A stretch of 64,000 nt of DNA from Acidimicrobiaceae bacterium (GCA_009843735.1 VYCW01000087.1:7589-71588); one strand, 5' to 3'; shown: positions 10,705-50,495, counted from the stretch's first letter. The notes: generated from the sequence alone by a model not told the origin. Numbers and translations are program-made.

Positions 10705-10716
10705 CCTGCGACGGAG

Positions 10717-13641: not shown

Positions 13642-13667
13642 CCCGGGAGGGACCGGCGCCCCGGAGG

Positions 13668-14652: not shown

Positions 14653-14675
14653 GTTCCGGCATACGGAACTGTTCC
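14653..14675. promoter_or_regulatory. Candidate operator: GTTCCG-GCATA-CGGAAC-T-GTTCC (three alternating half-sites)
   Basis: Lies in the divergent folD/serA-like intergenic region. Same half-site and 5-nt spacer as 8897..8913. Confidence 0.5.
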
Positions 14676-14734
14676 AAAACAGCGCGTCTCAAGTTCGAAT
14701 CGCGCCGTTTGAGAGATTCCGAGGTGGGAGCAGC

Positions 14735-29319: not shown

Positions 29320-29808
29320 CTAGAGGGTCCAGGTGGAGAGGACCAGGGCCCTGTCGCGCCAGGCCTGGATGTTGGCGTCGAGGACGTCGAGCGGGTTGAA
29401 GGGGGTCACGCCCTCCATCACGTCGTCCTCGCGCATACCGTAGAGCGCGCCCATGGCGAAGCGGCAGCAGTACACCGTCGCGCCCTCGTTGATGAGGGTC
29501 TGGAGCTGGCGGTTGTACCCGAGGTTGCCGGGGAAGCCCTCCTGGCCCACCGCCGGGTAGCCCCGGGCAGCGTTGGCCATGAGCACGGCCGGGCCGTACA
29601 GCACGAACGTGAGCTTGAAGCCCTTGCGCTGCAGGCGGGTGGCGGTGAGCATGTTCACCAGGCCGACCGAGCCCTCGAAGGGCACGGTGTGCATGAACAC
29701 GTACGCCTGATCGCCCTCCTCAGCCTTGTAATCGGGGAAGACCTTCTCCTCGATGTTGTGCATGACGTCGCCCTCTTGGGGCGGCGGGATGGTCACTGTC
29801 TTTGGCAT
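29320..29808 (-). CDS. Hypothetical protein, proposed MSMEG_0572/Sll0783-family (Nit1C 'Hp1') member
   Basis: 162 aa. Assigned from size and conserved gene order (flavoprotein, small protein, ~160-aa protein) as in the MSMEG_0569-0570-0572 arrangement. Family identity not verified. Confidence 0.5.
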   Translation of the reverse strand: MPKTVTIPPPQEGDVMHNIEEKVFPDYKAEEGDQAYVFMHTVPFEGSVGLVNMLTATRLQRKGFKLTFVLYGPAVLMANAARGYPAVGQEGFPGNLGYNRQLQTLINEGATVYCCRFAMGALYGMREDDVMEGVTPFNPLDVLDANIQAWRDRALVLSTWTL

Positions 29809-29859
29809 TTCGCCTCCTTGTTGTCGATGTTGTCGATGTCTGGATCGGTTGCGGAAGGG

Positions 29860-30120
29860 TCAGACAGCCGGTCCCCGGGGCCGGCCCGACCGGATAGGCC
29901 AGTCCCTCCGGTGAGAGCCCGGCAGGATAGCGATGACGCGGCGCCGGATGCCCCACGGAAGCAGGCGGTACACCGGCGTGAACACGTGCCTCCAGAAGAT
30001 CTCCCGAGCGCCTCGCGCCTTCTGGGGAGCCCGGGCGCCGTAACGGGCCCCGACACGCCGCTGAGCGTCGATGGCCAGGTAGCGCTCGGAGTTCGAGCGG
30101 AGCCAGTGAGCGAAACTCAT
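29860..30120 (-). CDS. Small hypothetical protein, proposed MSMEG_0570-family (Nit1C 'Hp2') member
   Basis: 86 aa, 18 nt downstream of the flavoprotein gene. Assignment by position and size only. Confidence 0.45.
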   Translation of the reverse strand: MSFAHWLRSNSERYLAIDAQRRVGARYGARAPQKARGAREIFWRHVFTPVYRLLPWGIRRRVIAILPGSHRRDWPIRSGRPRGPAV

Positions 30121-30138: not shown

Positions 30139-31461
30139 CTACAGCCCGGCCAGGAGGTTCTGCGCGGCCACCGAGATCGGCTCGTTGAGGGCGCCGATGG
30201 CGGGCGAGTAGACGTTCTCCATCGTGGCCAGCTCCTCAACGGTGAGCCCGACCCGCACCGCCATGGCCAGGAAGTCGGCCCGCTCCTTGATGCCCTCGCC
30301 GCCCACCATCTGCGCGCCGATCAACCGGAGCGACCCCGGCTCGGCCAGCAGCTTCACGGTGATGGGCCTCACGCCCGGGTAGTAGCGGGCCCGGGTGATG
30401 CCCTGGGCCTTGCCCACCACGTGCTGGATGCCCAACGCGGTGGCCAGCGTCTCGCCGAAGGACACCCCGCCGATCATCCACTCTCCGGCCAGCAGGCCCC
30501 ACGGCACGAACACCGGCCGGTAGTGGCGGGTGCCGCCCGCCGCGTTGGTGCCGGCCGTCTTGCCCTGGGCGTAGGCGTGGGAACCGGTCAGCCCCTGGAT
30601 CGGGATGTCGGTGACGCCGTGCGGGATCTCGGTGCAGTCGCCGGCCGCGTAGATGTTCGGATCGGAGGTCTGCATCCTGGAGTCGACGACCAGCCCGCCG
30701 GTCGTACCCAGCTGCAGACCGGCGGCCTCGGCCAGCGGGTTGTTGGGCACCTTGTGAGTGCCGATGATGACGATGTCGGTGTCGATGTCGCCCTGCTCGG
30801 TCTCGACCCGACTCACAGCGCCATCGCCCCTGAAGGCGGTGACCCAGTTGCCCCACTGCATGTCGACATCGGCGTCCTCCCAGGCCTGGCGGACGGGCTC
30901 GACGATGTCGGGATCGAGCACATCGGCCATCGGCCAGGGGGCCCGGTCGACGACGGTCACCTTGATCCCCCGGTGCAGCAGGGCCGCGACCATCTCCATG
31001 GCCACCAGACCGGCCTCGACGATCACCGCCGACTTGCAGGAGTCGAGGCGCTTGTCCCAGTCCATGGCCGCCCGGATGTACTTGACCTCGTAGATCCCGT
31101 CGAGGTCGGCCCCATCGACATCCACCTTGGCGTAGTTCCAGCCGGCGCCGATGATGAGCCGGTCATAGGACACCACGCCCTCACCCGCGACGGTGAGGGT
31201 GCGCGCCTTCGCGTCGATGGCCTCGACGGTGGTCTCGTAGTGGACGTCGATCCCGGTGTTTACGTACTGCTCCTTGGTGGCCAGGAAGAGCCGCTCGAAT
31301 GAGTCGATCTCGCGCCCGTGGACGTAGGGGATCCCGCAGGGGCTGTAGGCCACATCAGTGTCGGCGGTGTAGACCACCACCTCCGCGCTGGGATCGACCG
31401 CCTTGGCCGCGCCGGCGGCACCCAGTCCTGCGGCGCCTCCGCCGATCACTGCGATCCGCAT
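30139..31461 (-). CDS. Pyridine nucleotide-disulfide oxidoreductase (NADH oxidase/CoA-disulfide reductase-like); proposed MSMEG_0569-family flavoprotein
   Basis: 440 aa. MRIAVIGGGAAG, single redox Cys in YSPCGIPY, and a second Rossmann fold. Confidence 0.8.
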   Translation of the reverse strand: MRIAVIGGGAAGLGAAGAAKAVDPSAEVVVYTADTDVAYSPCGIPYVHGREIDSFERLFLATKEQYVNTGIDVHYETTVEAIDAKARTLTVAGEGVVSYDRLIIGAGWNYAKVDVDGADLDGIYEVKYIRAAMDWDKRLDSCKSAVIVEAGLVAMEMVAALLHRGIKVTVVDRAPWPMADVLDPDIVEPVRQAWEDADVDMQWGNWVTAFRGDGAVSRVETEQGDIDTDIVIIGTHKVPNNPLAEAAGLQLGTTGGLVVDSRMQTSDPNIYAAGDCTEIPHGVTDIPIQGLTGSHAYAQGKTAGTNAAGGTRHYRPVFVPWGLLAGEWMIGGVSFGETLATALGIQHVVGKAQGITRARYYPGVRPITVKLLAEPGSLRLIGAQMVGGEGIKERADFLAMAVRVGLTVEELATMENVYSPAIGALNEPISVAAQNLLAGL

Positions 31462-31592: not shown

Positions 31593-32048
31593 TCAAACGG
31601 CCACCACCGACAGCTCGGGGGTGTTGCGGATGGTGTTGCTCACGTAGCACACCCGGGCCGCGGCCTCCACCAGCGCGGCCTTGACGGACTCCTCGCAGCC
31701 GGCGTCGACCCGTATCTCCAGCGCCGAGAACCGGGGCCCGTCGTAGGTGCCGGTCACCTCCACATCGACATGGGACAGCTCGATGCCGCGCTTGCCGGCC
31801 GCGTGGGCCACCGCCAGCGTGAAGCAGGACGACAGCGCGGCCAGGAGCAGCTCGGTCGGCTGGGGCCCCTCGTTGGTGCCGCCCACGCTCTCGGGCTCGT
31901 CCACCGGGATCGTGAAGTCGCCGGCGGTGACATCGCAGCGGTATGCACCCAGCCACCGGGCCGAGACTGTGCGGGTAAGCGAACTCACGAAGAAGTCGTC
32001 CTTCAGGCGGTGGCTCAGCCCGTCAACTATACGACGCCCCCCGATCAC
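31593..32048 (-). CDS. OsmC/Ohr family peroxiredoxin-like protein
   Basis: GGTNEGPQPTELLLAALSSC and VCYVSNT motifs. Alternative GTG start at 31988. Confidence 0.8.
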   Translation of the reverse strand: MIGGRRIVDGLSHRLKDDFFVSSLTRTVSARWLGAYRCDVTAGDFTIPVDEPESVGGTNEGPQPTELLLAALSSCFTLAVAHAAGKRGIELSHVDVEVTGTYDGPRFSALEIRVDAGCEESVKAALVEAAARVCYVSNTIRNTPELSVVAV

Positions 32049-32081: not shown

Positions 32082-32720
32082 ATGCGCCGCGAGACCGGCA
32101 ACGGCAACGGAGGAGACGGCTCGGAGACACCGCCGAGCCCGACGCACGGCGAGGACCTGAGCGCGGTCGTGAACTCGATCGGACCCAAGGTCCGCCACCT
32201 TCGCAAGCAGTGGAACCTGTCGCTGCAGCAGCTCGCCGACCGGTCCAACGTCTCGACCGCAGCCATCCACAAGGTCGAGCAGGGCGCGATGGTGCCGACC
32301 ATCACGACGCTGCTGAAGCTGGCTGCGGCCCTGGAACAGCCGGTGTCGTACTTCGTGGAGGAGGACCAGGAGCCGCCGCTGTACGCGGTCTTCACACCCG
32401 CCGCCGAGCGCCGGTCGATCTACACGCCCCATGAGGGTCTCTCCCTGGGCGGCATCTCGGGCCCCTACGGGCAGTACTTCGTGGCGACCGCCATCGCCGA
32501 GGTCGAGCCGGGGGCCGACAGCGGCGAGAACCCTCTGCGCCACGCCGGCGAGGAGCTCATCCACATGCTGTCGGGGCGGCTCGACGTCGATGTCGGCGAC
32601 CAGTCGTTCCAGCTGCGCCGGGGCGACTCGATCCACTTCCGGACCGACCAGGAGCACCGCTGGCACAACCCGTACCGGCACACCGCACGGGCGGTGTGGA
32701 CCGCCCTGAGACCCACCTGA
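32082..32720 (+). CDS. XRE-family HTH transcriptional regulator with C-terminal cupin domain (PuuR-like architecture)
   Basis: IGPKVRHLRKQWNLSLQQLADRSNVSTAAIHKVEQG HTH, followed by a cupin (GEELIHMLSGRL...GDSIHF). Confidence 0.85.
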   Translation: MRRETGNGNGGDGSETPPSPTHGEDLSAVVNSIGPKVRHLRKQWNLSLQQLADRSNVSTAAIHKVEQGAMVPTITTLLKLAAALEQPVSYFVEEDQEPPLYAVFTPAAERRSIYTPHEGLSLGGISGPYGQYFVATAIAEVEPGADSGENPLRHAGEELIHMLSGRLDVDVGDQSFQLRRGDSIHFRTDQEHRWHNPYRHTARAVWTALRPT

Positions 32721-32744: not shown

Positions 32745-34160
32745 TCAGTCCTGTGACAGCCGCTGGTCGAGGTCGAGGAGGGCCTGCATGAAGCACTCGG
32801 CGGGGGCGCGGGCCACTCCGGCGCCCACCTGGCCGGACCCGTCGGAGACGTGGAGGATCCCGGTGTTGACCGCCGGGGTGATGGAGGTCTCGACCACCCG
32901 GCGGACATCGACCCCGAGGGGGGTTCCGGCGTTGTCGAGCACCGGTAGACGGAACCGGCTGCTGGTGCTGGCGCAGATGCGGCTCATCGCCGCCGTGACG
33001 GCTGCCGCATCGGCCATACGGCCCCCGAGGAAGCCGGCCACCGCCGGAGAGTTGGCCGCGGCCGGGCCACCCAGCCCCACCAGTTCCAGCACGGCGCTGT
33101 CACCGATGTCGGGGGCGCTGGTGTCGGGACCCTGATCCGGGTAGTACAGGGCGTCCTGCACAGGGGGCGCCTCCGCGATGAACCAGTTCTCGGGCCGGCC
33201 GGCCAGGCGGATGCCGTAGGTGGTGCCGTTGCGGCACATGGTGGTGACGATGCTCGAGTCCGGCACCTGGCCGGCCCACTCGACCAGAGCGCGGGCACCG
33301 GCCATGACCACGTTGAGGAACATCAGGTGGTTGGTGCTCAGGAAGTCGGCCACCTCGCCGATCCGGGCGACATCCGAGCGGACTAGTTGCGGGAGCAGGT
33401 CGCGCAGCAGCAGGTTGGTGGTGGCCTGGACCCGCATGTGCACGTCGTCGCCCATGGTGATGCCCTGAGCGGCCAGTGAGAACACATCGACCGGTCCGGT
33501 CCCGTCGAGAGCCCGGGCCAGGGCCGGACCGAGCGCGTCCCGCAGGAACCGGAGGCGCTCGATGGCCGCGTCGGAGTCGACCCCGAACCAGGCGACCTCC
33601 CCGGAGCCCTGGTTCAGGCTGGAATAGGCGGTGGTGCCGCCAGCATCGACCGAAACCACGTAGACCGGCGCGCTGGGACCGATCGCGGTGGCCATCGGCA
33701 CCACCGTGCAGTGCTCATTAGCCGGCTCCAGGCCGATCTCACCGGCCTGCACCATGCGGTCGGCGGCATCGCTGTTGGAGGCCCAGCCCTCGGCCACGAC
33801 CGCGGCCCTGACCGAGCGCCGGAGCGGGTCGCACATGTCGGCCCAGGCGATCCGCGGCCCGCAGTGCAGGATCGTCGCTTCGTCCAGGCCGCCGATCACC
33901 GAGCCCGCCGTGTCCACGCCCTGCAGCATGGGCACACCGCGGTCCAGGCGGCTGATCACCTCCGCGTTGGCCGCGTCCACCCGGTCCGAGGCCGGGCCCA
34001 GCAGCCGGGCCAGCGCCGCCACCGCGTCGAGGTCGCCGCCGGCGGGGATGCGCCAGTCCACGCCGACCGCGGGGGCGCCCTGGTCGCGTACCGCGGTCTC
34101 GAACCGCTCCAGGCCGATGTTGACGACTTCCACCCTGTCGGGCAACTCGATGGCGCCCAT
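32745..34160 (-). CDS. DUF1116 family protein (YlbE/AllG-like)
   Basis: 471 aa. Resembles the E. coli YlbE family that partners FdrA and YlbF. Confidence 0.65.
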   Translation of the reverse strand: MGAIELPDRVEVVNIGLERFETAVRDQGAPAVGVDWRIPAGGDLDAVAALARLLGPASDRVDAANAEVISRLDRGVPMLQGVDTAGSVIGGLDEATILHCGPRIAWADMCDPLRRSVRAAVVAEGWASNSDAADRMVQAGEIGLEPANEHCTVVPMATAIGPSAPVYVVSVDAGGTTAYSSLNQGSGEVAWFGVDSDAAIERLRFLRDALGPALARALDGTGPVDVFSLAAQGITMGDDVHMRVQATTNLLLRDLLPQLVRSDVARIGEVADFLSTNHLMFLNVVMAGARALVEWAGQVPDSSIVTTMCRNGTTYGIRLAGRPENWFIAEAPPVQDALYYPDQGPDTSAPDIGDSAVLELVGLGGPAAANSPAVAGFLGGRMADAAAVTAAMSRICASTSSRFRLPVLDNAGTPLGVDVRRVVETSITPAVNTGILHVSDGSGQVGAGVARAPAECFMQALLDLDQRLSQD

Positions 34161-34335: not shown

Positions 34336-34881
34336 TTACGACATCGTGACGAGCAGGGCGCTCGGCGTGTCGCGGGCGGCGGGCAGTCGCAGGTGGGCGT
34401 CCTCCGGGATGTCGGCTTCGACCAGCCTCCGGGCCTCAGCCAGCCGGAAGATCATCGGCTGGTGGGGCAAGCCGTAGTAGGGCACGGGCGGCCCGTTGTG
34501 CTCCCATCCGATGCGCTCGAAGAAGGTGACGTTCTGGAGTTGCACGAAGGCGTCCATCACAGTGCCTCCGGCTTCAGCGGCAGTCGACACCGCGAAACGG
34601 ACGAGCCTGATCCCGACGATTCCCGCCCGGTAGCCGGGCAGCACGGCCAGGCGGTCGCCCTTCCAGCGGCCGGCGTCGTCGGTGCGGTACAGGCGGACCG
34701 TGCCGATCACCTCCGGTCCCCGGCCGGCGACCACGTGGATCGTGTCGGGGTCGGCGTCCCAGTCGTCGACGTCGGTGAGGGGAATGACCCGCTGCTCCTC
34801 CACGAACACCCGGTGCCGGATGCGCATGTGCCAACTCCGGGCCTCCGGGGAGACAGCCCGCCAGCATTCGATGCGCTCCAC
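34336..34881 (-). CDS. GNAT N-acetyltransferase, proposed MSMEG_0567/Sll0786 family
   Basis: 181 aa. RHRVFVEEQ... GNAT core. 13 nt downstream of the radical SAM gene, as in Nit1C clusters. Confidence 0.7.
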   Translation of the reverse strand: MERIECWRAVSPEARSWHMRIRHRVFVEEQRVIPLTDVDDWDADPDTIHVVAGRGPEVIGTVRLYRTDDAGRWKGDRLAVLPGYRAGIVGIRLVRFAVSTAAEAGGTVMDAFVQLQNVTFFERIGWEHNGPPVPYYGLPHQPMIFRLAEARRLVEADIPEDAHLRLPAARDTPSALLVTMS

Positions 34882-34894: not shown

Positions 34895-36013
34895 TCAGCC
34901 CAGGGCCTTCACGGGGATCAGCTTGCGCCCATTGGACCCCTGCAGTTCCCGCTCCATCGCTCCCACCGGCGAGCAGGCCTGGCAGCGGGCGCATCCGGCC
35001 GCGACCTTGTCCGCGGTCAGTCCCCGCTCCACCAGGTACGGCGCAACCTTCCGGGCGACCTGATCGACGTAGCCGGCGGCCGGCGGCGTCCAGTCGCCCA
35101 TCAGCGAGCCCGGGACCGGCCGCAGGGGCACGACGAAGGGGTACACGCCTATGTCGGCGGCCCGCCGGCAGCCCTCGACGATGAGGTCCGGGTCCTCTCC
35201 CATGCCCAGGATCACATAGGTGGAGACCTGGCCCTCGCCGAAGCGCTCCACGGCGTACTCCCAGGTCTCGAAGTAGCGGTCGATGCCGGTGCGGTACTTG
35301 GGGGGAGCGACCCACCGCAGCACCTCCGGATCGAAGGTCTCCACATGGATGCCCACCGAGTCGATGCCCCGTGCGGCCACTTGGTCGATCACACTGAGGT
35401 CGTCGGGCGGCTCGAACTGGACTTCGACAGGAAGGCCCGAGGCCTCCTTCATCGCCTGGCCGCACTTGGCCACGTAGAGGGCGCCCTTGTCGCGGCCGTA
35501 GGTGGAGCCTGTGGTCAAGGTGATGTCCACGGCGCCGTCGAGTTCCTTGGCCGCCACCGCCACCTCGGCCAGCTGCGCGGGGCGCTTCACCAGCACGGTG
35601 CTGCCGGAGTCCAGCGACACCCCGATCCCGCAGAAGCGGCACTGATCCTCGTTGCCCCAGTAGGCGCAGGTCTGCAGAACGGTGCTGGCCAGCGAGTCGA
35701 GGTGCATGAGGGCCAGGTGCCAGTAGGGGACGCCGTCGTCGGTGGTGAGACCGTAGAACCGGGGCCGGTCGGCGGGAGCCGCGCCGGCCAGCCGGACGCC
35801 GTCAGCGTAGATCCCGAACCCGACGTCCTCAGGCTCCAGCGAGTAGGGGGAGTCGGCCACGAATCCAGCGTCCACCGGCACCGTCACCGCAGTGCCCTCG
35901 ATCCAGACCATGCCCGCGTCCGACGGCCCGGCACCGCCCGGCCGTCGCTCGAAGGGGGCGTTTATCCGCAGACCCTTGAACTGGAGGTCAATGATGAGTT
36001 CGGCCAGGGACAC
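34895..36013 (-). CDS. Radical SAM protein, proposed MSMEG_0568 family
   Basis: 372 aa. Cys triad C116-X8-C125-X2-C128 (CAYWGNEDQCRFC), TIM-barrel-like core, and a C-terminal CARCQAC. Confidence 0.75.
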   Translation of the reverse strand: MSLAELIIDLQFKGLRINAPFERRPGGAGPSDAGMVWIEGTAVTVPVDAGFVADSPYSLEPEDVGFGIYADGVRLAGAAPADRPRFYGLTTDDGVPYWHLALMHLDSLASTVLQTCAYWGNEDQCRFCGIGVSLDSGSTVLVKRPAQLAEVAVAAKELDGAVDITLTTGSTYGRDKGALYVAKCGQAMKEASGLPVEVQFEPPDDLSVIDQVAARGIDSVGIHVETFDPEVLRWVAPPKYRTGIDRYFETWEYAVERFGEGQVSTYVILGMGEDPDLIVEGCRRAADIGVYPFVVPLRPVPGSLMGDWTPPAAGYVDQVARKVAPYLVERGLTADKVAAGCARCQACSPVGAMERELQGSNGRKLIPVKALG

Positions 36014-36115: not shown

Positions 36116-36643
36116 TTAGGGGATCTCGTTCCCCGTGGCGAGGATCAGAGCCGGCACCCAGAACGTGTAGATCGCGGTTCCGGCCAGGACCAGGCCCAGG
36201 AGCTTGGCTTCGAGCTTGCCGTAGGTGGTGAGGGCCACCGACCCGAACGCGACCAGCCACACGATAAGGATCGACTGGAACATCCAGCTGCCGTCGAAGA
36301 AGTCCCACCAGAACATCGGGAGGATGGCCGTCGGCACGGCGAGGTTCCCCACCACGCGCAGGTCCCATCCATTGGCCTCTGTCTTGCCGAGAACCACGAA
36401 GAACAGGCCGTAGAACGTGACCAGTCCGGCGAGGACGACCGACGCGTCGTCCAGCGGCCGGGCCCACATGATGTAGACGGCCTGGACCAGGTTCAGCAGA
36501 CCCACGATCAGGCTGGCGTGCCCGATGCTGACAAGCGGGTTCGTTCCCCCCTCCTTCTGATCGGCGCCCACGCCGAGGAAGTAGAGGGCGTTCAGCCACA
36601 CGATTAGGCCGGTGGCAATGAACACGATGGTTATGGGAGGCAT
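36116..36643 (-). CDS. AmiS/UreI family amide/urea channel
   Basis: 175 aa with six predicted TM helices. Size and W/F-rich pattern are typical of AmiS/UreI. Confidence 0.65.
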   Translation of the reverse strand: MPPITIVFIATGLIVWLNALYFLGVGADQKEGGTNPLVSIGHASLIVGLLNLVQAVYIMWARPLDDASVVLAGLVTFYGLFFVVLGKTEANGWDLRVVGNLAVPTAILPMFWWDFFDGSWMFQSILIVWLVAFGSVALTTYGKLEAKLLGLVLAGTAIYTFWVPALILATGNEIP

Positions 36644-36665
36644 GACAAGCCCCTTCCTGCCCCAC

Positions 36666-36726
36666 CCGACATTTCGGATGAGACATAGTTATTTCCCAAC
36701 CTAAACCCTGGGCGATCAGGCGTCAA
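36666..36726 (-). promoter_or_regulatory. Promoter TTGACG-N17-TAGGTT plus conserved +5..+25 box (ATGTCTCATCCGAAATGTCGG)
   Basis: -35 at 36721..36726 and -10 at 36698..36703, with the box at 36666..36686. Paralogous to 31504..31565. Confidence 0.6.
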
Positions 36727-36779
36727 ACCTGGCGCGGCAACACTCCGGATCCGGGGCCGGCTAACGCCCCGGCGCCATC

Positions 36780-37148
36780 TCAGTGATCGTGATGATGGTC
36801 GTGATCGCCGTGGTCGTGATCGCCGTGGTCGTGGCCCGGTGGGCGGGCCGCGTAGGCCGCGGCCAGCGCGTCCACCTCGGGCTCCGAGACGATCGCCCGC
36901 TCCTCCACGATCCACTCGAGGGCCTCCTGCCAGCGCTCGTAGTAGCGGTACTCCCCCACCGGATCCGACTCCCAGCGCTGCACGGCCGCGATCAGATGGT
37001 CGCGGAAGTCATCCCAGGTGAAGTGGCCACCCTCCACCAGAGCCATGGCCATGGCGAAGCTGCGCCCCTCCCAGGGCGCGTCGAATACCAGCTCACCGTT
37101 GAGCCGGGGCGGAGCGGCCGGGCCTTCGATGTCGAGGGTGAGAGCCAC
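36780..37148 (-). CDS. Nitrile hydratase accessory (activator/metallochaperone) protein with His-rich tail
   Basis: 122 aa. Beta-subunit-like N-terminal region (FDAPWEGRSFAMA) and a C-terminal HDHGDHDHGDHDHHHDH. Confidence 0.8.
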   Translation of the reverse strand: MALTLDIEGPAAPPRLNGELVFDAPWEGRSFAMAMALVEGGHFTWDDFRDHLIAAVQRWESDPVGEYRYYERWQEALEWIVEERAIVSEPEVDALAAAYAARPPGHDHGDHDHGDHDHHHDH

Positions 37149-37158
37149 CGGCGCCCGT

Positions 37159-37755
37159 TCAGCCTGCGCTGACCTTGGCCACCCCCACCATGGCGTCGCG
37201 GGTCACCAGCGCAGCCAGCTCGTCCTCGCCGAGGTCGTCGGTGCCTTCGGGGCGCTGGGGAAGGACCAGGTAGCGGTTCTCGGCGCTGGAGTCCCACACC
37301 CGGACCTCCACATCGTCGTCGAGGTCCAGGCCCATCTCGCTCAGCAGCGTGCGGGGCTCGCGCACCATGCGACTGCGGTAGGCGGGGTCCTTGTACCACT
37401 CCGGCGGCAGGCCCAGTACCGGCCACGGGTAGCACGAGCACAGCGTGCACACCACCACGTTGTGCACGTCGTCGGAGTTCTCGACCACCACGATGTGCTC
37501 GCCCTGGGGTCCGGCGAAGCCCAGCTCCTTGATGGCGCCGGTGCCGTCGGCCAGCAGGTGCTGGCGGTAGTCGGGGTCGGTCCACGCCTTGGCCACCACC
37601 TTGGCGCCGTTCATGGGGCCGACGTCGTTGACGAAACGGTTGATGAAGCCGTCGAGCACCTCGGACTTGACCAGGCCGCGCTCGGTCAGCAGGGACTCCA
37701 GCGCCTCGGTCCGCACCGCGGGCGGGAGCCGGTCGGTGGTGTTGGTGTCAGCCAT
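37159..37755 (-). CDS. nthA: Nitrile hydratase subunit alpha (cobalt type)
   Basis: 198 aa. Metal site [10 protein letters not shown] (Thr and Tyr, as in Co-type enzymes) encoded at 37432..37449. Confidence 0.92.
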
Positions 37756-38415
37756 CTAGGTCGCCTCCAGGTAGCTCTCGAACAGGTCGATGCGCAGCGT
37801 GGCCGCCTCCGCGTCCGGGCCCCACAGCTCGGCGGAGTCGAACTCCACGGTGTACACGTGCTGGGGGTTCTCGCCCTCGAAGTGGGCGTTGGTGTCGGGC
37901 AGCAGCGCGGCGGGGCGCAGCGCGTGGACGGTGCCGGTGCGGCCCCGGATGTAGCCGGGCATCCGGGTGTGGCCGCCGGTGCGAATGTCCTTGGCCCGCA
38001 CCCGGTCAGCCGGTGAGAAGGCGGGCTCGTCGTCGATCTCGCGCAGCGAGCCGGCGCCGCCTCGCTCGTAGACGGGCTTGTTCTCCTCGACGTCGGCGGG
38101 CTCGTCGACCGTCTCCCCCGTCAGGTTCCGGGCCCTGGCCTCCACCGCTCCGGGCGCGAGCACGCCGCTGTCGACCAGCAGCGTCTCGGCGCAGGCCAGC
38201 CAGCGCCCGTAGTAGCCGTCGACCAGGTAGTCGTAGGGATGCAGGCGTTCCAGGCCGTGGCGGAAGGCGTCGAGGTTGGTGCCCGACAGACCCATCGACA
38301 TGGCCCCCATGGCGAAAGCCCGGCCGTGCCAGGGCTCCCGGAAGACCGGCTCGTCGGGGTCGATGGCCACCGTGCCCCAGCCCTGCATTCCGCCCATGTC
38401 GTGGATGCCGTCCAT
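37756..38415 (-). CDS. nthB: Nitrile hydratase subunit beta
   Basis: 219 aa. MDGIHDMGGMQGWG N-terminus. Its stop abuts the nthA ATG. Confidence 0.9.
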   Translation of the reverse strand: MDGIHDMGGMQGWGTVAIDPDEPVFREPWHGRAFAMGAMSMGLSGTNLDAFRHGLERLHPYDYLVDGYYGRWLACAETLLVDSGVLAPGAVEARARNLTGETVDEPADVEENKPVYERGGAGSLREIDDEPAFSPADRVRAKDIRTGGHTRMPGYIRGRTGTVHALRPAALLPDTNAHFEGENPQHVYTVEFDSAELWGPDAEAATLRIDLFESYLEAT

Positions 38416-40030: not shown

Positions 40031-41380
40031 TTAGGCCCACTCATCGGTCTCGGCGGATCGGCGGCCGGAGGCGGCGGCTACGACCGCGTCGACCATCGCC
40101 GAGGCTGCGCCGGTCTCGGGCCGGTCCAGACCCTCCAGGTCGGCCGGCGACGCGACATGCTCCAGGACCTCCGTCAGCGGGCGGCCGCTGAGCCGGGCGG
40201 TCCGGTAGGCCTGCTGGAGCTCGTCATTGGCCCGGTGCTTGCCCAGGCGGGCCGACAGGCGCCTCAGCAGTTCCTGGGACCCGAAGTCGCCCATGGTCTC
40301 CAGGTTGGCCGCCATCGCCTCGGCATCCACCTCGATGCTCGCCGCGAGGCCGCGGGCCAGGCCCAGTTGGGCCAGCAAGTAGTGGCCAATCTCCGGCAGC
40401 AGCACCCACTCGGTCTTCCAGGTGCGGCCGTCGCGCTCGTGGTCGCCGACCATGGTCTCGGTGAGCACACCCGAGGCCGAGCGCACCAGCCGGGCGAGGG
40501 TCACGATCTGCTCGCTGCGCTCCGGGTTGCGCTTGTGGGGCATGGTGATGCTGCCCATGGTGGCCTCGGACGCCGCCTCCGCGACCTCGCCGATCTCGCG
40601 CCGCTGGAGGTTGTACACCTCGTTGGCCATCCGGGCCATGGTCGCCGAGACCAGAGCCGAGTTGTTGGCGAACTCGGCGATCCGGTCCCGGGCCGTGAGC
40701 CAAGAGACGGTCGGCTCCCCCAGTTCGAGGCGTTGGCAGAAGCGGCGGCGCAGTTCGGGTCCGAGCTCTCCGTAGAAGCCCAGGGCCCCGACCGCCCCGG
40801 CCAGCTGGCCCACCACGAGGCGGGGACGGCTCTGGCGCCAGCGCTCCAGATGGCGGGCCGTCTCATCGGCCCATGAGGCTGCCTTGAGCCCGAAGGTCAC
40901 CGGAGCGCCCGGCTGGCCGTGGGTGCGGCCCAGCATGGGCGTGTCGCGGTGGCGCCCGGCCAGATCGAGCAGCGAGGCCTCCACCGCCCGCAGGTCTCGC
41001 CACACGATGGCGCCGACGTCGCGCATCTCCAGCGCGGCGGCGGTGTCGGTGACGTCCTGCACGGTGGCGCCGTAGTAGACGTGCTCGCGGGCCTCGGCGG
41101 GCAGCAGGGCTTGCAGCTCGCGCACCAGCCCGATGGTGGAGTGGGACGTCCGGCGGGTCTCCGCGCCCACCGCGGCCGGGTCCAGCCGGCTCGCGTCGAG
41201 GTCTTCTATCGCCGCGGCGGAAGCGGCAGGGATGATCTCGAGGTCGGCCTGCGCGGCGGCCAGAGCCTTGAGCACCCGCACCCAGCGGGACAGGCGGGCG
41301 CGCTCGGAGAACAGGGCCAGCGACTCCGAGGTGGACCACCCGTGGCCGTAGATGGCCGAGTCGATCAGGTGGGCGTCCAC
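40031..41380 (-). CDS. Adenylosuccinate lyase / 3-carboxy-cis,cis-muconate cycloisomerase-like fumarate-lyase superfamily protein
   Basis: GTG 41380 (VDAHLIDSAIYG...) overlaps the upstream gene by 16 nt. GRTHGQPGAP and GSITMPHKRNP signature. 449 aa. Confidence 0.8.
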   Translation of the reverse strand: MDAHLIDSAIYGHGWSTSESLALFSERARLSRWVRVLKALAAAQADLEIIPAASAAAIEDLDASRLDPAAVGAETRRTSHSTIGLVRELQALLPAEAREHVYYGATVQDVTDTAAALEMRDVGAIVWRDLRAVEASLLDLAGRHRDTPMLGRTHGQPGAPVTFGLKAASWADETARHLERWRQSRPRLVVGQLAGAVGALGFYGELGPELRRRFCQRLELGEPTVSWLTARDRIAEFANNSALVSATMARMANEVYNLQRREIGEVAEAASEATMGSITMPHKRNPERSEQIVTLARLVRSASGVLTETMVGDHERDGRTWKTEWVLLPEIGHYLLAQLGLARGLAASIEVDAEAMAANLETMGDFGSQELLRRLSARLGKHRANDELQQAYRTARLSGRPLTEVLEHVASPADLEGLDRPETGAASAMVDAVVAAASGRRSAETDEWA

Positions 41381-42312
41381 GCGCCGTCCTCGGTCCCGGC
41401 CAGCGTGTGGAGGGCGGTGCGCACCTCTTCGAGGGTCGCACCCCACGGCACCATGACGGTGTCGCCGTGCCGCTCCATTCCCTCGTCCAGCATGCAGCAG
41501 CGGCTCAGGACGAGTCCCGCGCCGGCCGCGTCGCCGGCGGCGTCCATGAGCCGGCGGGGGCACCAATCGATGGTGCGGGGAGCGTCGGTCCCGTAGAACC
41601 AGCGGTGGATCTGCTGGGAGCGCTCGCAGCCGAGCAGGGTCGAACCGGCGAAGGACGGGCGCTCGTCGAGGTGCGACACCGAGACCCCCTCGAGTTCGAT
41701 CCCCCCGCCACGGCAGGGAACGATCAGACCCTCCGACGGTTGCGAACCGGCCTCGGCCACCAGCGAGCGGCTGTCGACGATCCACTCGCTCACCGAGATG
41801 GGCGGCAGGTCCTCGGCCGAGTCCAGGACCCTGGCGACCTGGTCAGCCAGCTTGGAGGGCTCCGGTGGCACGACATCCATCACCGTCACCCGGACGGGGT
41901 CGGCGTTGAGCAGGAAGCTCACATGGCGGTACCGGCCCTCCACCACCACGCACCGGTGATCGGGGCGCTGGGCCGCGGCCCGGGCCAGGTGCGATCCGAC
42001 GCCCAGGTCGAGGCTGTCGTCGCGCACGTAGGCGCATTCGGCGGCCGTTGCCAGCACACGGGCGGCGACCGCCTCGGAGAACAGGTCGTCGCTGCCGTCG
42101 CGGGCCAACTCCACCAGCGCGCAGCGTTCGGGGTCGCCATCCAGGCGGGCGATCACGAATCTGGTCCGGTGGTACGCCTCGCGTCCGGTGAAGCGGGCCA
42201 CCAGATCGTCGGGCGACAGGCTGGGAACCGATGCCACCGACACCTGCCGGTAACGGGCCGGCATCACGTTGGGCGCGGCCGGATCTAGCTCGAACACGGC
42301 CTCATGGTCCAC
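41365..42312 (-). CDS. Cys-rich hypothetical protein (family not recognised)
   Basis: About 300-315 aa (GTG 42312 or ATG 42264) with coding-like composition. C-terminal Cys pattern VPCRGGG...GCERSQ...WCPRR...SRCCMLD. Overlaps both neighbours. Confidence 0.6.
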   Translation of the reverse strand: MDHEAVFELDPAAPNVMPARYRQVSVASVPSLSPDDLVARFTGREAYHRTRFVIARLDGDPERCALVELARDGSDDLFSEAVAARVLATAAECAYVRDDSLDLGVGSHLARAAAQRPDHRCVVVEGRYRHVSFLLNADPVRVTVMDVVPPEPSKLADQVARVLDSAEDLPPISVSEWIVDSRSLVAEAGSQPSEGLIVPCRGGGIELEGVSVSHLDERPSFAGSTLLGCERSQQIHRWFYGTDAPRTIDWCPRRLMDAAGDAAGAGLVLSRCCMLDEGMERHGDTVMVPWGATLEEVRTALHTLAGTEDGAWTPT

Positions 42313-43105
42313 CGAGCGACCCCGCGGTGTGGGTGGGAAGGCTGGTCCTGAGGGTGTCGGAGCGCAGCCCGCGCCGGAGCGCCTCCACGCCGAGCACCTC
42401 AGCCGGAGCGATGTTGGCCAGGTTGACGTTCGCGCCCAAGTGGTTGATGAGCCAGGCCTGCTGCTGGCGCCGCGGCGCCTCGTAGACGACCGGCGCGTCC
42501 TCGCCGAGGCGTCCCAGGGCCTCCACCAGGTCGGTGCGAACCGACCCGTCGGCGCCATAGAGGCCCACCGTCCCGCTCTCGCGGCCCTCGGCCACCAGCC
42601 ACGCCGCGCCGCAGTCCAGGTCGCTGCGGGCCTCGTCGAGCCATTCCGACGGCAGGGCCGGCTCATGGGGATCCTTGCTGCCCACCTCCGAGAACACTTC
42701 GAAGCCGTGGCCGCGGGCCGCACCGATCAGTTCGCGCTTGGAAGAGGCCGGCAGGCCGGTAGCGCCCCGCGAGACCTCCACGCAGCCGAAGCCGAGACGG
42801 CGGGACCAGTCGAAGAACTCGGCGCTGCGGCCCTGCCACCACGCTGCTTCCAGCAGGGTCCCGCCCGGACAGGCCTTGACGCCGTGGGTCTCCAGCAACT
42901 CGATCTTGGCTCCGACCGTGCTGTCGATGTAGGCGGTGCCGAAGCCGAACTTCCAGACATCCACGAACGCGCCGTGGGCCTCGAGCAGTTCGCCCATGCT
43001 CTCCAACGGCGTGCCCTTGTCGATTATGTGGGTGATCCCCCGGCGGCGCGGCTTGGTCGTCCGAGCGGCAGTCTCAAGGAACCGGGGAGGCTCGGAGATG
43101 GGCAT
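42302..43105 (-). CDS. Phosphosulfolactate synthase (ComA) family protein
   Basis: KPRRRGITHIIDKG and DVWKFGFGT motifs of the ComA TIM barrel. ATG 43105 lies behind AGGAGA. Tracked TTG start at 43135. Confidence 0.75.
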   Translation of the reverse strand: MPISEPPRFLETAARTTKPRRRGITHIIDKGTPLESMGELLEAHGAFVDVWKFGFGTAYIDSTVGAKIELLETHGVKACPGGTLLEAAWWQGRSAEFFDWSRRLGFGCVEVSRGATGLPASSKRELIGAARGHGFEVFSEVGSKDPHEPALPSEWLDEARSDLDCGAAWLVAEGRESGTVGLYGADGSVRTDLVEALGRLGEDAPVVYEAPRRQQQAWLINHLGANVNLANIAPAEVLGVEALRRGLRSDTLRTSLPTHTAGSLGGP

Positions 43106-43127
43106 CGGGATGATCTCCTGACCGGCG

Positions 43128-43964
43128 TCACCCAACGGCGGGCCGAGACACCATTGTACGGGTCACGTCAGTACGGGGCAGTTCGGTGGCGGCCAGAGCG
43201 AGGCCGGCGGTGAGCGCCCGGCCCGAGGTCGCGCCCACTGCGGCCAGCGACTGGGCGGCCCGCACCATTGCGTCGCCGTCGCCGGATCCTGCCGCGTCCA
43301 GCAAGGCGTGGGCGGGCTGGATGCTCTGGCCGGCCGCGGCCCACCTCAGGTAGGCGCGGCTGAGCGTGGTCGTGCGGGCCGTGCGGGCCAAGCGCCCCAG
43401 GGCTACGCGGCGTGCCGAGTCCGTGGCGCACGCCAGCAGGATCCCGGCGAGCACGTCGTCGCCGCTCGGCGTGAGCCCGGGGCCACGCCCCGCAAGCCGA
43501 CCGAACACCGCGGCCAGGTCCCCGCGCCGAAGGTCATGTTTCACCGCTTCCCAAACGGGTGCCAGATCGACGTCCACTCCGGCCGCGAGACCATGCCAAG
43601 CCTCCGGGTCTGCCTTGAGGCGCTCGGGCAGGCTCGGTGCCCAGCGACGGCATCCGTCGAGCAGTACGGCGACCGGGCCGGCCACAAGGGTGCCGTCGGA
43701 GACACGCACTCTCTCGTGAACCGCAGGTAGTTCAGCCATCTCGCCGACGACGAGGTGCAGGGGCCCCGGCCAGTGTCGGGGACCCACTACCGCGAAGATC
43801 TCCTCGGAGGGGCCTGAGACATAGAAGCCGTCGTCGAAGGCGCCCTGCACCCGGCCGACGAATCCGGGACAGGCCGCTTCGAGAACCCCGGCACCGCACC
43901 AGAGCACCGGGACGGGCTCCGCTACTGCTGTACCGTGCGGCCGTGGCCCCGCCCGAGTCATCAT
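43128..43964 (-). CDS. DUF2877 family protein (YlbF/AllH-like)
   Basis: GRGPGLTPSGDDVLAG motif. ATG 43964 (MMTRAG...). The upstream part of the tracked ORF is Arg-rich, non-coding-like sequence. Confidence 0.65.
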   Translation of the reverse strand: MMTRAGPRPHGTAVAEPVPVLWCGAGVLEAACPGFVGRVQGAFDDGFYVSGPSEEIFAVVGPRHWPGPLHLVVGEMAELPAVHERVRVSDGTLVAGPVAVLLDGCRRWAPSLPERLKADPEAWHGLAAGVDVDLAPVWEAVKHDLRRGDLAAVFGRLAGRGPGLTPSGDDVLAGILLACATDSARRVALGRLARTARTTTLSRAYLRWAAAGQSIQPAHALLDAAGSGDGDAMVRAAQSLAAVGATSGRALTAGLALAATELPRTDVTRTMVSRPAVG

Positions 43965-43978
43965 CGCTGGACCGGCTG

Positions 43979-44902
43979 GTGGACGCGGTCCGCACCCATG
44001 GAGGCTTGCGGGCCAAGCGGGCGATCGGAGCTGTCCGGCGCGTCCTCGGTGCCGCCGATCCGCTGAGCGGTCCCGGCGACGACGGCGCCGCGGTGGAGAT
44101 GTCCACCGCCGGCTCGGTGATCGTGTGCGGCGAAGCGCTCCTTCCCGGCTTCGTGGCATCGGATCCCCGGGGCGCGGGGATCGCGGCGGTGCTCGCCAAC
44201 GTCAACGACCTCGCGGCCATGGGAGCGGTCCCCAGAGCGATCGTGAACACTGTCGTAGCGACGGCACCAGTGGCGGCTGAGGCTCTGGGAGGCATGGCCG
44301 AGGCCGCGGCCCTCTACGACGTGCCCATTGTGGGCGGTCACCTGACCGAGCACCAGGGCGAACCGGCGCTGTCGGCGTTCGCGGTCGGCGACGCCGACCG
44401 GGTCCTGTCGGCCGACCGAGCCCGTGCAGGCCAGCATCTCGTGTTCGCCTGCTGCCTCGACGGCAGGATGCGGACCGACTTCGACTTCTTCACCACCCTC
44501 GAATCGCAGGGACCCCGCCTGGCTGCTGATGTGCGTCTGCTGGCCCGGGCGGCCAGCGAGGGTCTCGCTTCGGCGGCCAAGGATGTCAGCATGGCCGGAG
44601 CGATCGGTTCGCTGGCGATGCTGCTTGAACCCGGACGCCTCGGTGCCGAGATCGACCTGCACACGCTGCCGGGGCCTGAGGGGGTGGCCCTGGACCGCTG
44701 GCTGGTCTGCTTCCCGACTTACGCCTTCTGGCTGGCCACGGGCAGACCCGAAGCCTGTGTGGACCTGTTCCGGTCGGCGGGACTGGCCGCCAGCGTCGTC
44801 GGGACCGTCACCGACAGCGGCGTTCTGGCGCTCCGGCAGGGCACCGAGAGCCGGGATGTGATCGATCTCAGACGAGAACCCGTCACCGGTCTCTGGGATT
44901 GA
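43979..44902 (+). CDS. AIR synthase-related (PurM/ThiL/HypE-like) protein, proposed sll0787 family
   Basis: GPGDDGAAVE ATP/Mg motif, NVNDLAAMGA, and the C-terminal PurM_C-like half. Start uncertain (GTG 43979 or CTG 43967). Confidence 0.7.
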   Translation: MDAVRTHGGLRAKRAIGAVRRVLGAADPLSGPGDDGAAVEMSTAGSVIVCGEALLPGFVASDPRGAGIAAVLANVNDLAAMGAVPRAIVNTVVATAPVAAEALGGMAEAAALYDVPIVGGHLTEHQGEPALSAFAVGDADRVLSADRARAGQHLVFACCLDGRMRTDFDFFTTLESQGPRLAADVRLLARAASEGLASAAKDVSMAGAIGSLAMLLEPGRLGAEIDLHTLPGPEGVALDRWLVCFPTYAFWLATGRPEACVDLFRSAGLAASVVGTVTDSGVLALRQGTESRDVIDLRREPVTGLWD

Positions 44903-44933: not shown

Positions 44934-45593
44934 TCAGGCTCCGGCCGCCTCGATCCGGCTCTTCATGGTCAGCCGGTGATCCTCGAAGAGTTCAGGGTCG
45001 CCGGTCTCCACGTCCCCGAAGGACGCCGCATCCAGCTCAGCCGTCCGGCCGTGCTCGTCGCCCAGCGCGGCCACCATCACCACATAGGTGGGCGCCATCG
45101 TCGAGGGATCGGGCTCGACGGTGCTGACCACCGCCAGCCCGGTGGCCAGATGCAGCTCGATGCGCTGGTAGGGATCGACGAGGCCGGCACCCAGGTCGCC
45201 CTGCTCGTGGACCACCGCCCACGCCTCTCCGGCCTCGCGGGCCGCGGCGATGCGGTCCCGGCGCTCCCGCTCGGCCCGCTCGGCCAGCAGCTCGCGGCGG
45301 CGAATCGCGAACCCAGCCCCGGCGATCTCCGCCTCGGGTAGCCGGTACCCGGCGATGTCGCCGGACGCCCGCAGCGCCCCGTCCACCAGATCGAACCGGC
45401 GCTCCCACCACTCCGCCAGCCCGTCCAGGTCCTCGACCTCCGCCAGGGCGTCGGCCACCGCTCTCACCAGCCTCACCGCGGACTGGTATGCGTCCGGGTT
45501 GGTGGTGGCCACCGGATAGAGCCGGCGCTCACTCTCGTCCCAATGGGCGGCCAGCACCGCAGTGGGGTCTGTGGCCGGAGAGCGGTCGCTCAT
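44934..45593 (-). CDS. Hypothetical protein
   Basis: 219 aa from ATG 45593 with an acidic, coding-like composition. No recognised family. Confidence 0.5.
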   Translation of the reverse strand: MSDRSPATDPTAVLAAHWDESERRLYPVATTNPDAYQSAVRLVRAVADALAEVEDLDGLAEWWERRFDLVDGALRASGDIAGYRLPEAEIAGAGFAIRRRELLAERAERERRDRIAAAREAGEAWAVVHEQGDLGAGLVDPYQRIELHLATGLAVVSTVEPDPSTMAPTYVVMVAALGDEHGRTAELDAASFGDVETGDPELFEDHRLTMKSRIEAAGA

Positions 45594-45673
45594 GGTGCCG
45601 ACTCCTCGTCGTGGGCGCACCCGTCGTTCAGCACGAGACATTGTGGCTTGGCAGGGCCTTGAACGCGTCATCT

Positions 45674-50229: not shown

Positions 50230-50436
50230 TCAGTGGCAGGGCACGCCAACGAAGTGCCGGCCGTCGTGGAAGAACTCGTGGAGGGTCTCTGCTGCGCCAC
50301 TGAGCACCGCGCCGTTCTCGAGCATCACGAAGTACGACACCAGAGCGGCCACCGCGACGAGAGCCCAGGCCCAAACCGGTATGTCGATCTCCTCGAATGC
50401 GGGGGCAGCCAGCGCGGGCAGAGCGTGAGTCTCCAT
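50230..50436 (-). CDS. cbtB: Putative cobalt transporter subunit CbtB
   Basis: About 68 aa from ATG 50436. One TM helix and the C-terminal HEFFHDGRHFVGVPCH motif characteristic of CbtB. Confidence 0.65.
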   Translation of the reverse strand: METHALPALAAPAFEEIDIPVWAWALVAVAALVSYFVMLENGAVLSGAAETLHEFFHDGRHFVGVPCH

Positions 50437-50495
50437 GCCAGCAGTGTCGCACACGCCCGACGCCAGCACCAATACCTACACCTGGCGCGGCACGT

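Follow-up and report, generated by a model that had tools for sequence, protein, structure and literature searches.

The nitrile hydratase locus

We analysed a 64-kb stretch of DNA from an Acidimicrobiaceae bacterium (VYCW01000087.1:7589-71588; hereafter the window), in which genes for a nitrile hydratase (NHase) lie within a gene set related to the Nit1C cluster. The initial annotation had described nthB, nthA and an accessory gene directly upstream of an AmiS/UreI-type channel gene and a radical SAM-GNAT pair, and all six genes were recovered with curated models at the following positions:

37756-38415, minus strand: NHase beta subunit, 219 amino acids (TIGR03888, score 207.8, cutoff 152.2, E 2e-61)
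37159-37755, minus strand: NHase alpha subunit, 198 amino acids (TIGR01323, score 303.9, cutoff 249.85, E 3.4e-91)
36780-37148, minus strand: NHase accessory (activator) protein, 122 amino acids (TIGR03889, score 67.3, cutoff 46)
36116-36643, minus strand: six-helix channel of the UreI/AmiS fold, 175 amino acids, a variable accessory gene (PF02293, fold of an AlphaFold2 model)
34895-36013, minus strand: MSMEG_0568-family radical SAM protein, counterpart of NitD (TIGR04043, score 362.8, cutoff 303.7)
34336-34881, minus strand: MSMEG_0567/Sll0786-family GNAT protein, counterpart of NitE (TIGR04045, score 91, cutoff 68.45)

The stop codon of the NHase beta gene is abutted by the start codon of the alpha gene, and the accessory gene starts 10 bp past the end of the latter. 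NHase alpha subunits carry a metal motif, C-(T/S)-L-C-S-C, which reads VCTLCSCY in cobalt-type and VCSLCSCT in iron-type enzymes; VCTLCSCY is visible in the translation of 37159-37755. Ranking of relatives with solved structures in the Protein Data Bank (PDB) placed cobalt-type alpha subunits first (249-304 bits), followed by an iron-type subunit (218 bits) and thiocyanate hydrolase chains (160-166 bits), while the best solved relatives of the beta subunit are cobalt-type beta subunits, among them that of Pseudomonas putida (3qxe_B, 162 bits). The thiocyanate hydrolase gamma model TIGR03887 also matches the alpha subunit (E 6.9e-59), with a score of 199 that lies below its cutoff of 291.45. 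Curated cutoffs, structure ranking and metal site together bear out the original assignment of a cobalt-type NHase over one of the thiocyanate hydrolase type.

The accessory protein resembles the N-terminal domain of the NHase beta subunit and has a histidine-rich C-terminal tail, PPGHDHGDHDHGDHDHHHDH. Beta subunits linked to this gene set form a tight group, being 54-96% identical to that of the window as against 31-46% for generic NHases, and have a 7-residue deletion in common. Relative to what we take to be the Pseudonocardia thermophila reference sequence, the equivalents of betaL48, F51, R52, Y68, W72 and R157 are presumably kept in the window beta subunit, which we treat as a lead only, and the cluster-linked beta subunits have an invariant arginine at what we assume to be the position of betaHis71.

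Absence of nitrilase and amidase genes

Open reading frames (ORFs) were called by third-position G+C, and all coding-type ORFs outside 26-47 kb were scanned against Pfam; for 26-47 kb we used precomputed Pfam calls on contigs of 100% identity, a value that drops within a patch at ~37.0-40.5 kb described below. No CN_hydrolase, Amidase or FmdA/AmdA (acetamidase/formamidase) domain was found in the 64-kb window, and tblastn of the window gave no match with either query used, an amidase and a nitrilase of the Nit6803 family from Rhizobium. The earlier observation that no nitrilase or amidase gene is encoded in the 64 kb therefore holds. No amidase was found next to ~170 related loci (designated here by L numbers). 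A classic NHase operon with an amidase and an aldoxime dehydratase was also considered and rejected, as no such domains occur in the window or in the related loci.

A larger gene set sharing the Nit1C core

Nit1C (nitBCDEFGH; Sll0783-Sll0787; MSMEG_0565-0572) was first described by Podar et al. 2005 (PMC1199592). In Pseudomonas it has been tied genetically to cyanide assimilation, and growth on cyanide depends on it; in cyanobacteria and mycobacteria it responds to nitrogen starvation. Its substrate and chemistry are stated as unknown (PMC7815647). Vinylic nitriles, fumaronitrile among them, are the best in vitro substrates of the nitrilases Nit6803 and Nit11764, whose physiological role is likewise stated as unknown (PMC7815647). 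In the canonical order, as found on a Rhizobium plasmid, MSMEG_0572 is followed by the Nit6803 nitrilase, radical SAM, GNAT, AIR-synthase-like (AIRS-like) and GT4 genes, MSMEG_0570, MSMEG_0569 and Pnap_2097. The window contains further counterparts of these genes, together with a regulator and genes of apparent redox function:

29320-29859, minus strand: MSMEG_0572/Sll0783-family protein, counterpart of NitB (TIGR04044, score 201, cutoff 109.85)
43940-44902, plus strand: AIRS-like protein, candidate counterpart of NitF, start uncertain (Pfam AIRS and AIRS_C)
48320-49456, plus strand: MSMEG_0565-family GT4 glycosyltransferase, the true start lying a few codons upstream (TIGR04047, score 370.4, cutoff 259.85)
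30139-31461, minus strand: disulfide oxidoreductase (DSOR) resembling CoA-disulfide reductase (Pfam Pyr_redox_2 and Pyr_redox_dim)
29860-30120, minus strand: hyp86, a conserved 86-amino-acid protein (no Pfam or NCBIfam match)
31593-32048, minus strand: OsmC/Ohr-like peroxiredoxin (Pfam OsmC; OsmC-type NCBIfam models below their cutoffs)
32082-32720, plus strand: PuuR-like regulator with XRE-type helix-turn-helix and cupin domains (Pfam HTH_31/HTH_3/Cupin_2; PuuR model 67 bits)

Four Nit1C family models (TIGR04043, TIGR04045, TIGR04044 and TIGR04047) exceed their curated cutoffs in the window. The MSMEG_0572-family protein has 51% identity with its Nit1C counterpart in Rhizobium. The best match of the AIRS-like protein is TIGR04049 (sll0787 family; score 245.9, cutoff 321.3), and the best NCBIfam match of the DSOR is CoA-disulfide reductase (score 267.2, cutoff 578.8). 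The second-best family of the AIRS-like protein is methanogenesis marker 2 (179 bits), an echo of the coenzyme-M-like genes nearby.

More than a one-gene swap separates the window from a canonical Nit1C cluster. Compared with 514 plasmid-borne radical SAM proteins of canonical Nit1C, that of the window reaches 37-44% identity, and tblastn with the Rhizobium proteins MSMEG_0570 (NitG), MSMEG_0569 (NitH) and Pnap_2097 gave no match, neither in the window nor in any locus of the NHase type. Proteins 66-98% identical to the window radical SAM protein come from Acidimicrobiia, Kribbella, Nocardioides, Streptomyces chiangmaiensis, Pseudonocardia and Paraburkholderia, and genes for FdrA, carbamate kinase, the AIRS-like protein, AllG, ComA, XcbA, XcbD and XcbC recur in the loci around them. 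The window is therefore part of a separate and larger gene set, which has the Nit1C core in common with the canonical cluster.

Alternation of nitrile hydratase and nitrilase

Related loci were also collected in a second scan centred on the XcbC-like gene and in a reverse scan from the NHase alpha subunit. Genes for NHase beta, alpha and accessory protein, with MSMEG_0572, lie downstream of XcbC in Kribbella, Nocardioides aquiterrae, Ilumatobacter and many Acidimicrobiales, in the alphaproteobacteria Ruegeria, Hoeflea, Silicimonas and Denitrobaculum, and in one Chloroflexota genome; NHase-type lineages also include Pseudonocardia. Linkage of NHase to the MSMEG_0572, DSOR, Xcb and radical SAM genes extends over at least four phyla.

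Five loci (L087, L184, L176, L171 and L163) have an XRE regulator gene divergent from a string of DSOR, hyp86, MSMEG_0572, NHase beta, NHase alpha, the accessory gene and, variably, OsmC; lineages with NHase in this slot are Pseudonocardia, Blastococcus and Acidimicrobiia. In Paraburkholderia elongata (L057) the order is OsmC, DSOR, hyp86, MSMEG_0572 and a Nit6803-type nitrilase, and the radical SAM protein of that locus is of the window type (75% identity). Because DSOR, hyp86 and MSMEG_0572 precede NHase in the former and nitrilase in the latter, the two enzymes share one slot, in agreement with the initial placement of NHase where the Nit1C nitrilase stands. The surroundings of the slot are conserved as well. 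DSOR is kept upstream of MSMEG_0572 in NHase and nitrilase variants alike, hyp86 lies between the two in every arrangement examined, OsmC is a conserved neighbour of either module in the gene-order strings, and the XRE-cupin regulator is divergent from the DSOR/NHase module in many lineages.

Nitrilases accompany other versions of the set. Loci of Sphingomonas pollutisoli (L146), a Nitrobacter metagenome-assembled genome (MAG; L151) and Sphingobium chungbukense (L154) combine the Xcb genes with a Nit6803-type nitrilase and a radical SAM gene of the canonical type. FdrA, GT4, AllG, MSMEG_0572 and DSOR genes are present as well in L146 and L151; of the larger set, the captured range of the Sphingobium locus holds only Xcb genes. 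On plasmid pSS37A-Re-1 of Methylocystis iwaonis (L256, 1-15485) an annotated nitrilase-type Nit1C lies directly beside OsmC, ComA, XcbA, XcbD, XcbE and XcbC. M. iwaonis is a cultured methanotroph and would be a convenient experimental system.

We merged loci from the same contigs into 119 genome groups and scored presence within the captured range. NHase was present in 67/119 groups and nitrilase in 4/119, with neither in the captured range of the remaining 48/119; at least one of these last is a coverage artefact, since L069 and L176 are on the same contig and the NHase genes lie just past the end of L069. Among groups covered by both scans, 39/40 had NHase. The survey suggested at the outset, of how often such clusters carry nthAB in place of a nitrilase, thus finds the NHase form to be common among the groups sampled, which span four phyla. 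The nitrilase-to-NHase swap recurs in dozens of bacterial species, and the NHase form is the usual state of the clade to which the window belongs.

From intact motifs and family models we predict that the three NHase genes encode a functional cobalt-type enzyme, and from gene order that this enzyme is an integral, co-inherited part of a Nit1C-derived set in which it has displaced a Nit6803-type nitrilase non-orthologously; we put the probability of this joint reading at roughly 0.6. The non-orthologous replacement proposed earlier is retained as far as the shared slot in relatives goes. It needs amending in that the set is not canonical Nit1C, having its own radical SAM clade and additional Xcb and AllFGH/carbamate kinase modules, of which the initial annotation mentions only a part.

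Coenzyme M pathway-like genes

Upstream of the NHase genes we identified a string of four genes resembling the bacterial coenzyme M pathway XcbA-E (PMC9457059):

38507-40027, minus strand: XcbC-like lyase of the argininosuccinate lyase fold (NF052535, score 436.3, cutoff 575)
40031-41380, minus strand: XcbD-like lyase of the adenylosuccinate lyase fold (NF052536, score 505.6, cutoff 600)
41365-42300, minus strand: XcbA-family/DUF7714 protein (NF052538, score 292.7, cutoff 150; PF24830, 269.1)
42302-43135, minus strand: phosphosulfolactate synthase (ComA/XcbB)-like protein (TIGR03849, score 244.9, cutoff 280; Pfam ComA on an identical gene)

The XcbC-like protein is 38% identical to XcbC of Xanthobacter autotrophicus Py2 and 66% identical to the product of the Methylocystis iwaonis plasmid gene. 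There is no XcbE gene in the window: the XcbD-like and XcbC-like genes abut at 40031/40027, leaving no room for it, and tblastn with an XcbE-like protein gave no match. In many relatives an XcbE-like pyridoxal-phosphate enzyme (NF052537, score 229, cutoff 450) is encoded between XcbD and XcbC (L066, L069-L075, L079-L082, L126, L128-L130, L147-L152). It is missing from the sponge lineage, from the alphaproteobacterial NHase-type sets and from L127 and L131, in both of which the NHase genes are fused to the Xcb string. Either a sulfonated thiol or an adduct of sulfoacrylate would be expected from the Xcb-like module, and the product in the window may be a sulfonate or thiol different from coenzyme M. 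By analogy, a sulfoacrylate from this module would resemble the vinylic substrates of Nit6803, which are small, planar and unsaturated.

AllFGH-like genes and the fate of the amide

A further module has similarity to AllFGH and carbamate kinase:

32745-34160, minus strand: AllG/DUF1116-family protein (PF06545 on the 100%-identical gene in L007-L009)
43128-43901, minus strand: AllH/DUF2877-family protein, start uncertain (PF11392 on the 100%-identical gene in L007-L009; no NCBIfam match)
45765-46745, plus strand: carbamate kinase (NF009007, score 316.8, cutoff 266; TIGR00746, score 325.8, cutoff 358)
46758-48308, plus strand: FdrA/AllF-family protein (NF004760, score 403.3, cutoff 433; Pfam HMA_AllF_N and Ligase_CoA on relatives)

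Carbamate kinase lies directly upstream of FdrA in the window and adjoins it in 29/29 NHase loci, compared with 0/2 FdrA-containing nitrilase loci (duplicates included); it is missing beside FdrA in Paraburkholderia hospita. AllG is conserved in nearly all related loci. The link to FdrA, DUF1116, DUF2877 and carbamate kinase genes noted in the initial annotation is thus a conserved one. Pfam scans and Pfam calls on identical contigs found no allantoin-pathway domains in the window.

In Escherichia coli, AllFGH is the oxamic transcarbamylase, and AllK is a carbamate kinase of catabolic function (Kim & Kim 2022/2024, cited in PMC12625717). The AllFGH set is known from oxalurate phosphorolysis, which yields oxamate, a primary amide, and carbamoyl phosphate. 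We infer that the NHase hydrates a nitrile of the cluster's own to a primary amide and that no amidase follows. The pathway may stop at this amide, or carbamoyl group if the cyano function sits on sulfur or nitrogen, as the wanted product, or may hand it to the AllFGH-like enzyme and carbamate kinase. The AllFGH-like enzyme would then phosphorolyse it to carbamoyl phosphate, from which carbamate kinase would form ATP, NH3 and CO2. The 29/29 versus 0/2 pattern would fit phosphorolysis of a carbamoyl-type amide followed by ATP formation.

A variable channel gene

The product of 36116-36643 matches PF02293 by a small margin (27.1 against a gathering threshold of 25; residues 6-171 on positions 4-165 of the 166-position model), and searches of the PDB with it by sequence and by profile gave no match. 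An AlphaFold2 model has six helices and a mean predicted local distance difference test score of 88.6; in Foldseek it superposes best on Helicobacter pylori UreI (TM-score 0.78 with 6nsj_A and 0.71 with UreI 3ux4_A), followed by SatP acetate channels (0.64). The Pfam match and this superposition justify the label UreI/AmiS-fold channel for the predicted product.

The channel gene is present in most loci of 'Candidatus Aldehydirespirator' and absent from L001-L006, L018, L025, L029, L032, L034, L035 and L037. L001-L006 encode an NHase alpha subunit identical to that of the window and yet have no channel gene, the accessory and radical SAM genes of L001 being 28 bp apart. Channel homologues form a divergent AmiS/UreI subfamily. 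One is carried by L168; another immediately precedes the nitrilase-type Nit1C of Nocardioides cavernaquae (L253), where the order is AmiS, MSMEG_0572-like, radical SAM, GNAT-AIRS and CN_hydrolase; those of Streptomyces tremellae and a Dormibacteraeota MAG have unrelated neighbours. The L253 cluster (QYRP01000002.1, 7008-16027) has a GNAT-AIRS fusion and two CN_hydrolase genes, and is preceded by an Amidohydro_2 gene as well as by the channel homologue.

The adjacency of the channel to the NHase and radical SAM genes is therefore real in the window, and the role first proposed for it, as conduit for the NHase-made amide, is weakened. Given its absence from L001-L006 and several sponge lineages, its occurrence beside a nitrilase-type Nit1C and its presence in unrelated contexts, the channel is not specifically an outlet for that amide. 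It is a recurrent optional partner of both NHase and nitrilase variants, and as its cargo a small neutral solute common to both fits the data better than an amide exported for the NHase alone. It would be an optional conduit for such a solute, either substrate or product.

Other genes and a mosaic patch

Two further conserved genes were identified:

44934-45671, minus strand: conserved protein of ~220-245 amino acids (no Pfam or NCBIfam match)
49441-50160, minus strand: CbtA, putative cobalt transporter subunit (PF09490, 171.4)

In Kribbella and Paraburkholderia a homologue of the ~220-245-amino-acid protein is encoded immediately before the radical SAM gene. CbtA follows directly after the GT4 gene, 11 kb from the NHase genes, and Kribbella and other Acidimicrobiia loci likewise have a CbtA homologue at this end of the set. 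An 80-amino-acid ORF upstream of CbtA (50230-50472, minus strand) has no family match and might at most be CbtB. The set can be divided into five groups: the Nit1C core, made up of the MSMEG_0572, nitrile enzyme, radical SAM, GNAT, AIRS-like and GT4 genes; a presumptive thiol/redox trio of DSOR, the small protein hyp86 and OsmC; the Xcb-like genes; AllFGH with carbamate kinase; and CbtA. Adjacent genes on one strand in the window overlap or are 10-175 bp apart, and the spacing around the NHase genes is consistent with co-transcription.

The window has a G+C content of ~70%, and its closest relatives are sponge-associated Acidimicrobiia MAGs assigned to 'Candidatus Aldehydirespirator' or Acidimicrobiaceae. 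A block at 963-15937 is devoted to one-carbon and methylated-amine metabolism, traits often reported for sponge symbionts; it includes BKACE (963-1871), ETF, an MTHFR-like gene, FolD (13668-14822), a 948-amino-acid DAO-GCV_T fusion (6258-9101) and formate-tetrahydrofolate ligase (8842-10704), and is followed by a sulfatase gene at 17252-19519.

Outside one patch, the window is 100% identical in DNA to L007 and L009 over 26-46.6 kb. Within the patch (~37.0-39.5 kb relative to L009, 37.0-40.5 kb relative to L007), which spans the NHase alpha and beta genes, XcbC and, relative to L007, the start of XcbD, identity falls to 81-97%; here L093 and L001, from other Aldehydirespirator species that are elsewhere ~70-89% identical, match the window at 97-100%. 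The patch reflects either recombination between co-resident sponge symbiont species or an assembly chimera, and the gene content is the same under both.

Weighing the displacement and its alternatives

Several observations count against a simple displacement of the nitrilase followed by processing of the amide. In the window itself the NHase genes adjoin the XcbC-like gene and are 6.9 kb from MSMEG_0572. NHases of the same subfamily (66-74% identity for alpha, 52-60% for beta) occur away from the cluster in Streptomyces and Pseudonocardia (L177-L183, L186); the reverse scan thereby excluded an NHase clade exclusive to the cluster, and within the subfamily linkage to the set is the usual case but has exceptions. 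Only two nitrilase loci underlie the carbamate kinase correlation, which includes duplicate loci. FdrA and AllG are also present in the nitrilase-type versions L146 and L151, and compact clusters such as L155, L156, L160 and L169, with no nitrile enzyme within 10 kb, have carbamate kinase and AllF/AllG without NHase in that range. The AllFGH/carbamate kinase module is therefore not simply an amide handler.

An alternative is that the set builds a small nitrile-containing molecule whose nitrile the NHase matures to an amide end product, the nitrile having been made by the AIRS-like protein through dehydration of a carboxamide, in the manner of HypE, or by the radical SAM enzyme. Such chemistry is established for HypE, as is that of the toyocamycin nitrile hydratase ToyJKL, which the maturation step by the NHase would parallel. 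The GT4, GNAT, radical SAM and AIRS-like enzymes of the set are typical of biosynthesis, NCBI labels the Nit1C families 'biosynthetic process', no amidase is present, and the authors of PMC7815647 find a biosynthetic metabolon conceivable. We regard this alternative as unlikely, however, as nitrilase (giving acid) and NHase (giving amide) alternate in one slot, which is hard to reconcile with a single end product; canonical Nit1C is in addition genetically tied to cyanide assimilation in Pseudomonas (PMC7815647), and HypE is not among the NCBIfam matches of the AIRS-like protein.

It is less likely still that the NHase is an ordinary catabolic enzyme scavenging environmental or sponge nitriles independently of the set, with its amidase encoded elsewhere in the genome. 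Close NHase relatives do occur without the cluster in Streptomyces and Pseudonocardia, the NHase/XcbC patch has signs of exchange between species, the amidase search covered the 64-kb window and the related loci, and an aeroplysinin-1 nitrile hydratase activity is known from Aplysina sponges, its producer being unknown (PMC3766881). However the linkage is conserved in at least four phyla, including free-living soil and marine bacteria and not only sponge symbionts; the NHase stands in the exact nitrilase slot; in the window its genes belong to a run on one strand whose members overlap or are closely spaced; and the amidase and aldoxime dehydratase that classically partner NHases are absent from the window and all related loci.

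That the enzyme is instead a thiocyanate hydrolase-type member of the NHase family converting SCN- to COS and NH3, to which the match of the gamma model and the sulfur-related genes nearby (ComA, Xcb-like, DSOR) might point, is ruled out for practical purposes by the curated alpha and gamma scores, by the last place of thiocyanate hydrolase chains in the PDB ranking, and by subunit architecture, the window beta subunit being a single 219-amino-acid protein with a weak match to the thiocyanate hydrolase alpha subunit (29 bits) where thiocyanate hydrolase has its beta equivalent split into two subunits.

A possible thiol-dependent route and its implications

Returning to the NHase as a displaced nitrilase's successor within the set, a speculative extension, to which we give long odds, would have the whole set form a thiol-cofactor-dependent route that converts a cyano group to ATP, NH3 and CO2 without an amidase. 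Xcb-like enzymes would make a coenzyme-M-like sulfonated thiol, and this thiol or its disulfide, handled by DSOR and OsmC, would trap cyanide, or else a cyano group, in the form of an S- or N-cyano adduct. The NHase would hydrate the adduct to a carbamoyl adduct, the AllFGH-like enzyme would phosphorolyse the latter to carbamoyl phosphate, and carbamate kinase would turn this into ATP, NH3 and CO2. A nitrilase would hydrolyse the adduct directly, so that carbamate kinase would be dispensable in nitrilase-type versions. Such a route, if true, would define the physiological substrate class of Nit1C.

That the nitrilase alternates with an enzyme able only to hydrate C≡N is an argument for a nitrile as the physiological substrate and for an amide as an acceptable product. 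Both variants occur beside coenzyme M-like genes and the disulfide reductase/OsmC pair, and the AllFGH-like and carbamate kinase genes are found most consistently with the NHase variant. The gene context points to sulfonated-thiol and carbamoyl chemistry, which is undiscussed for Nit1C in the open-access literature searched. Within that literature, which excludes subscription journals, no paper was found that links Nit1C with a member nitrile hydratase, with AllFGH or with Xcb/coenzyme M genes. The components all come from known families; their combination and the alternation of NHase and nitrilase appear to be undescribed. As cultured carriers exist (Kribbella, Nocardioides, Pseudonocardia hydrocarbonoxydans, Ruegeria sp. 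THAF57, Methylocystis iwaonis and Paraburkholderia elongata), these ideas are testable.

Comparison with known systems

The solved cobalt-type NHases of Pseudonocardia thermophila, Bacillus smithii/Geobacillus pallidus and Pseudomonas putida NRRL-18668 have the strongest similarity to the window enzyme, with which they have in common the beta-alpha-accessory gene order, the VCTLCSCY site and, presumably, the Arg, Tyr and Trp residues of the beta subunit. Those enzymes usually have a partner amidase, whereas the window NHase has none and lies inside a gene set that does not look catabolic. The channel is alike in size, six transmembrane helices, Pfam family and fold to the H. pylori urea channel UreI and to AmiS of the Pseudomonas aeruginosa amidase operon; it differs from these systems in being very divergent, in lacking a urease or amidase partner and in being restricted to some lineages.

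Like XcbABCDE of Xanthobacter autotrophicus Py2 (PMC9457059), the window has ComA/XcbB-like, XcbA, XcbD-like and XcbC-like genes in one string. Unlike the Py2 cluster it has no XcbE and no alkene or epoxide genes, and its matches to the XcbB, XcbC and XcbD models fall below their cutoffs. Homologues of all four components of Escherichia coli AllFGH and AllK are present and conserved together, and the known reaction of that system ties amide and carbamoyl chemistry to ATP formation; here the genes are distributed over two divergent strings and FdrA scores under its curated cutoff.

A further comparison is with Nit1C itself. The window likewise has members of the MSMEG_0572, MSMEG_0568, MSMEG_0567 and MSMEG_0565 families, together with an AIRS-like protein that matches the sll0787 family below its cutoff, and a nitrile-converting enzyme is common to both sets, encoded directly after MSMEG_0572 in relatives of the window. 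In place of the sll0784/Nit6803 nitrilase, however, the window has a cobalt-type NHase with its accessory protein, and to the Nit1C core it adds Xcb-like, AllFGH/carbamate kinase-like, DSOR/OsmC and CbtA modules.

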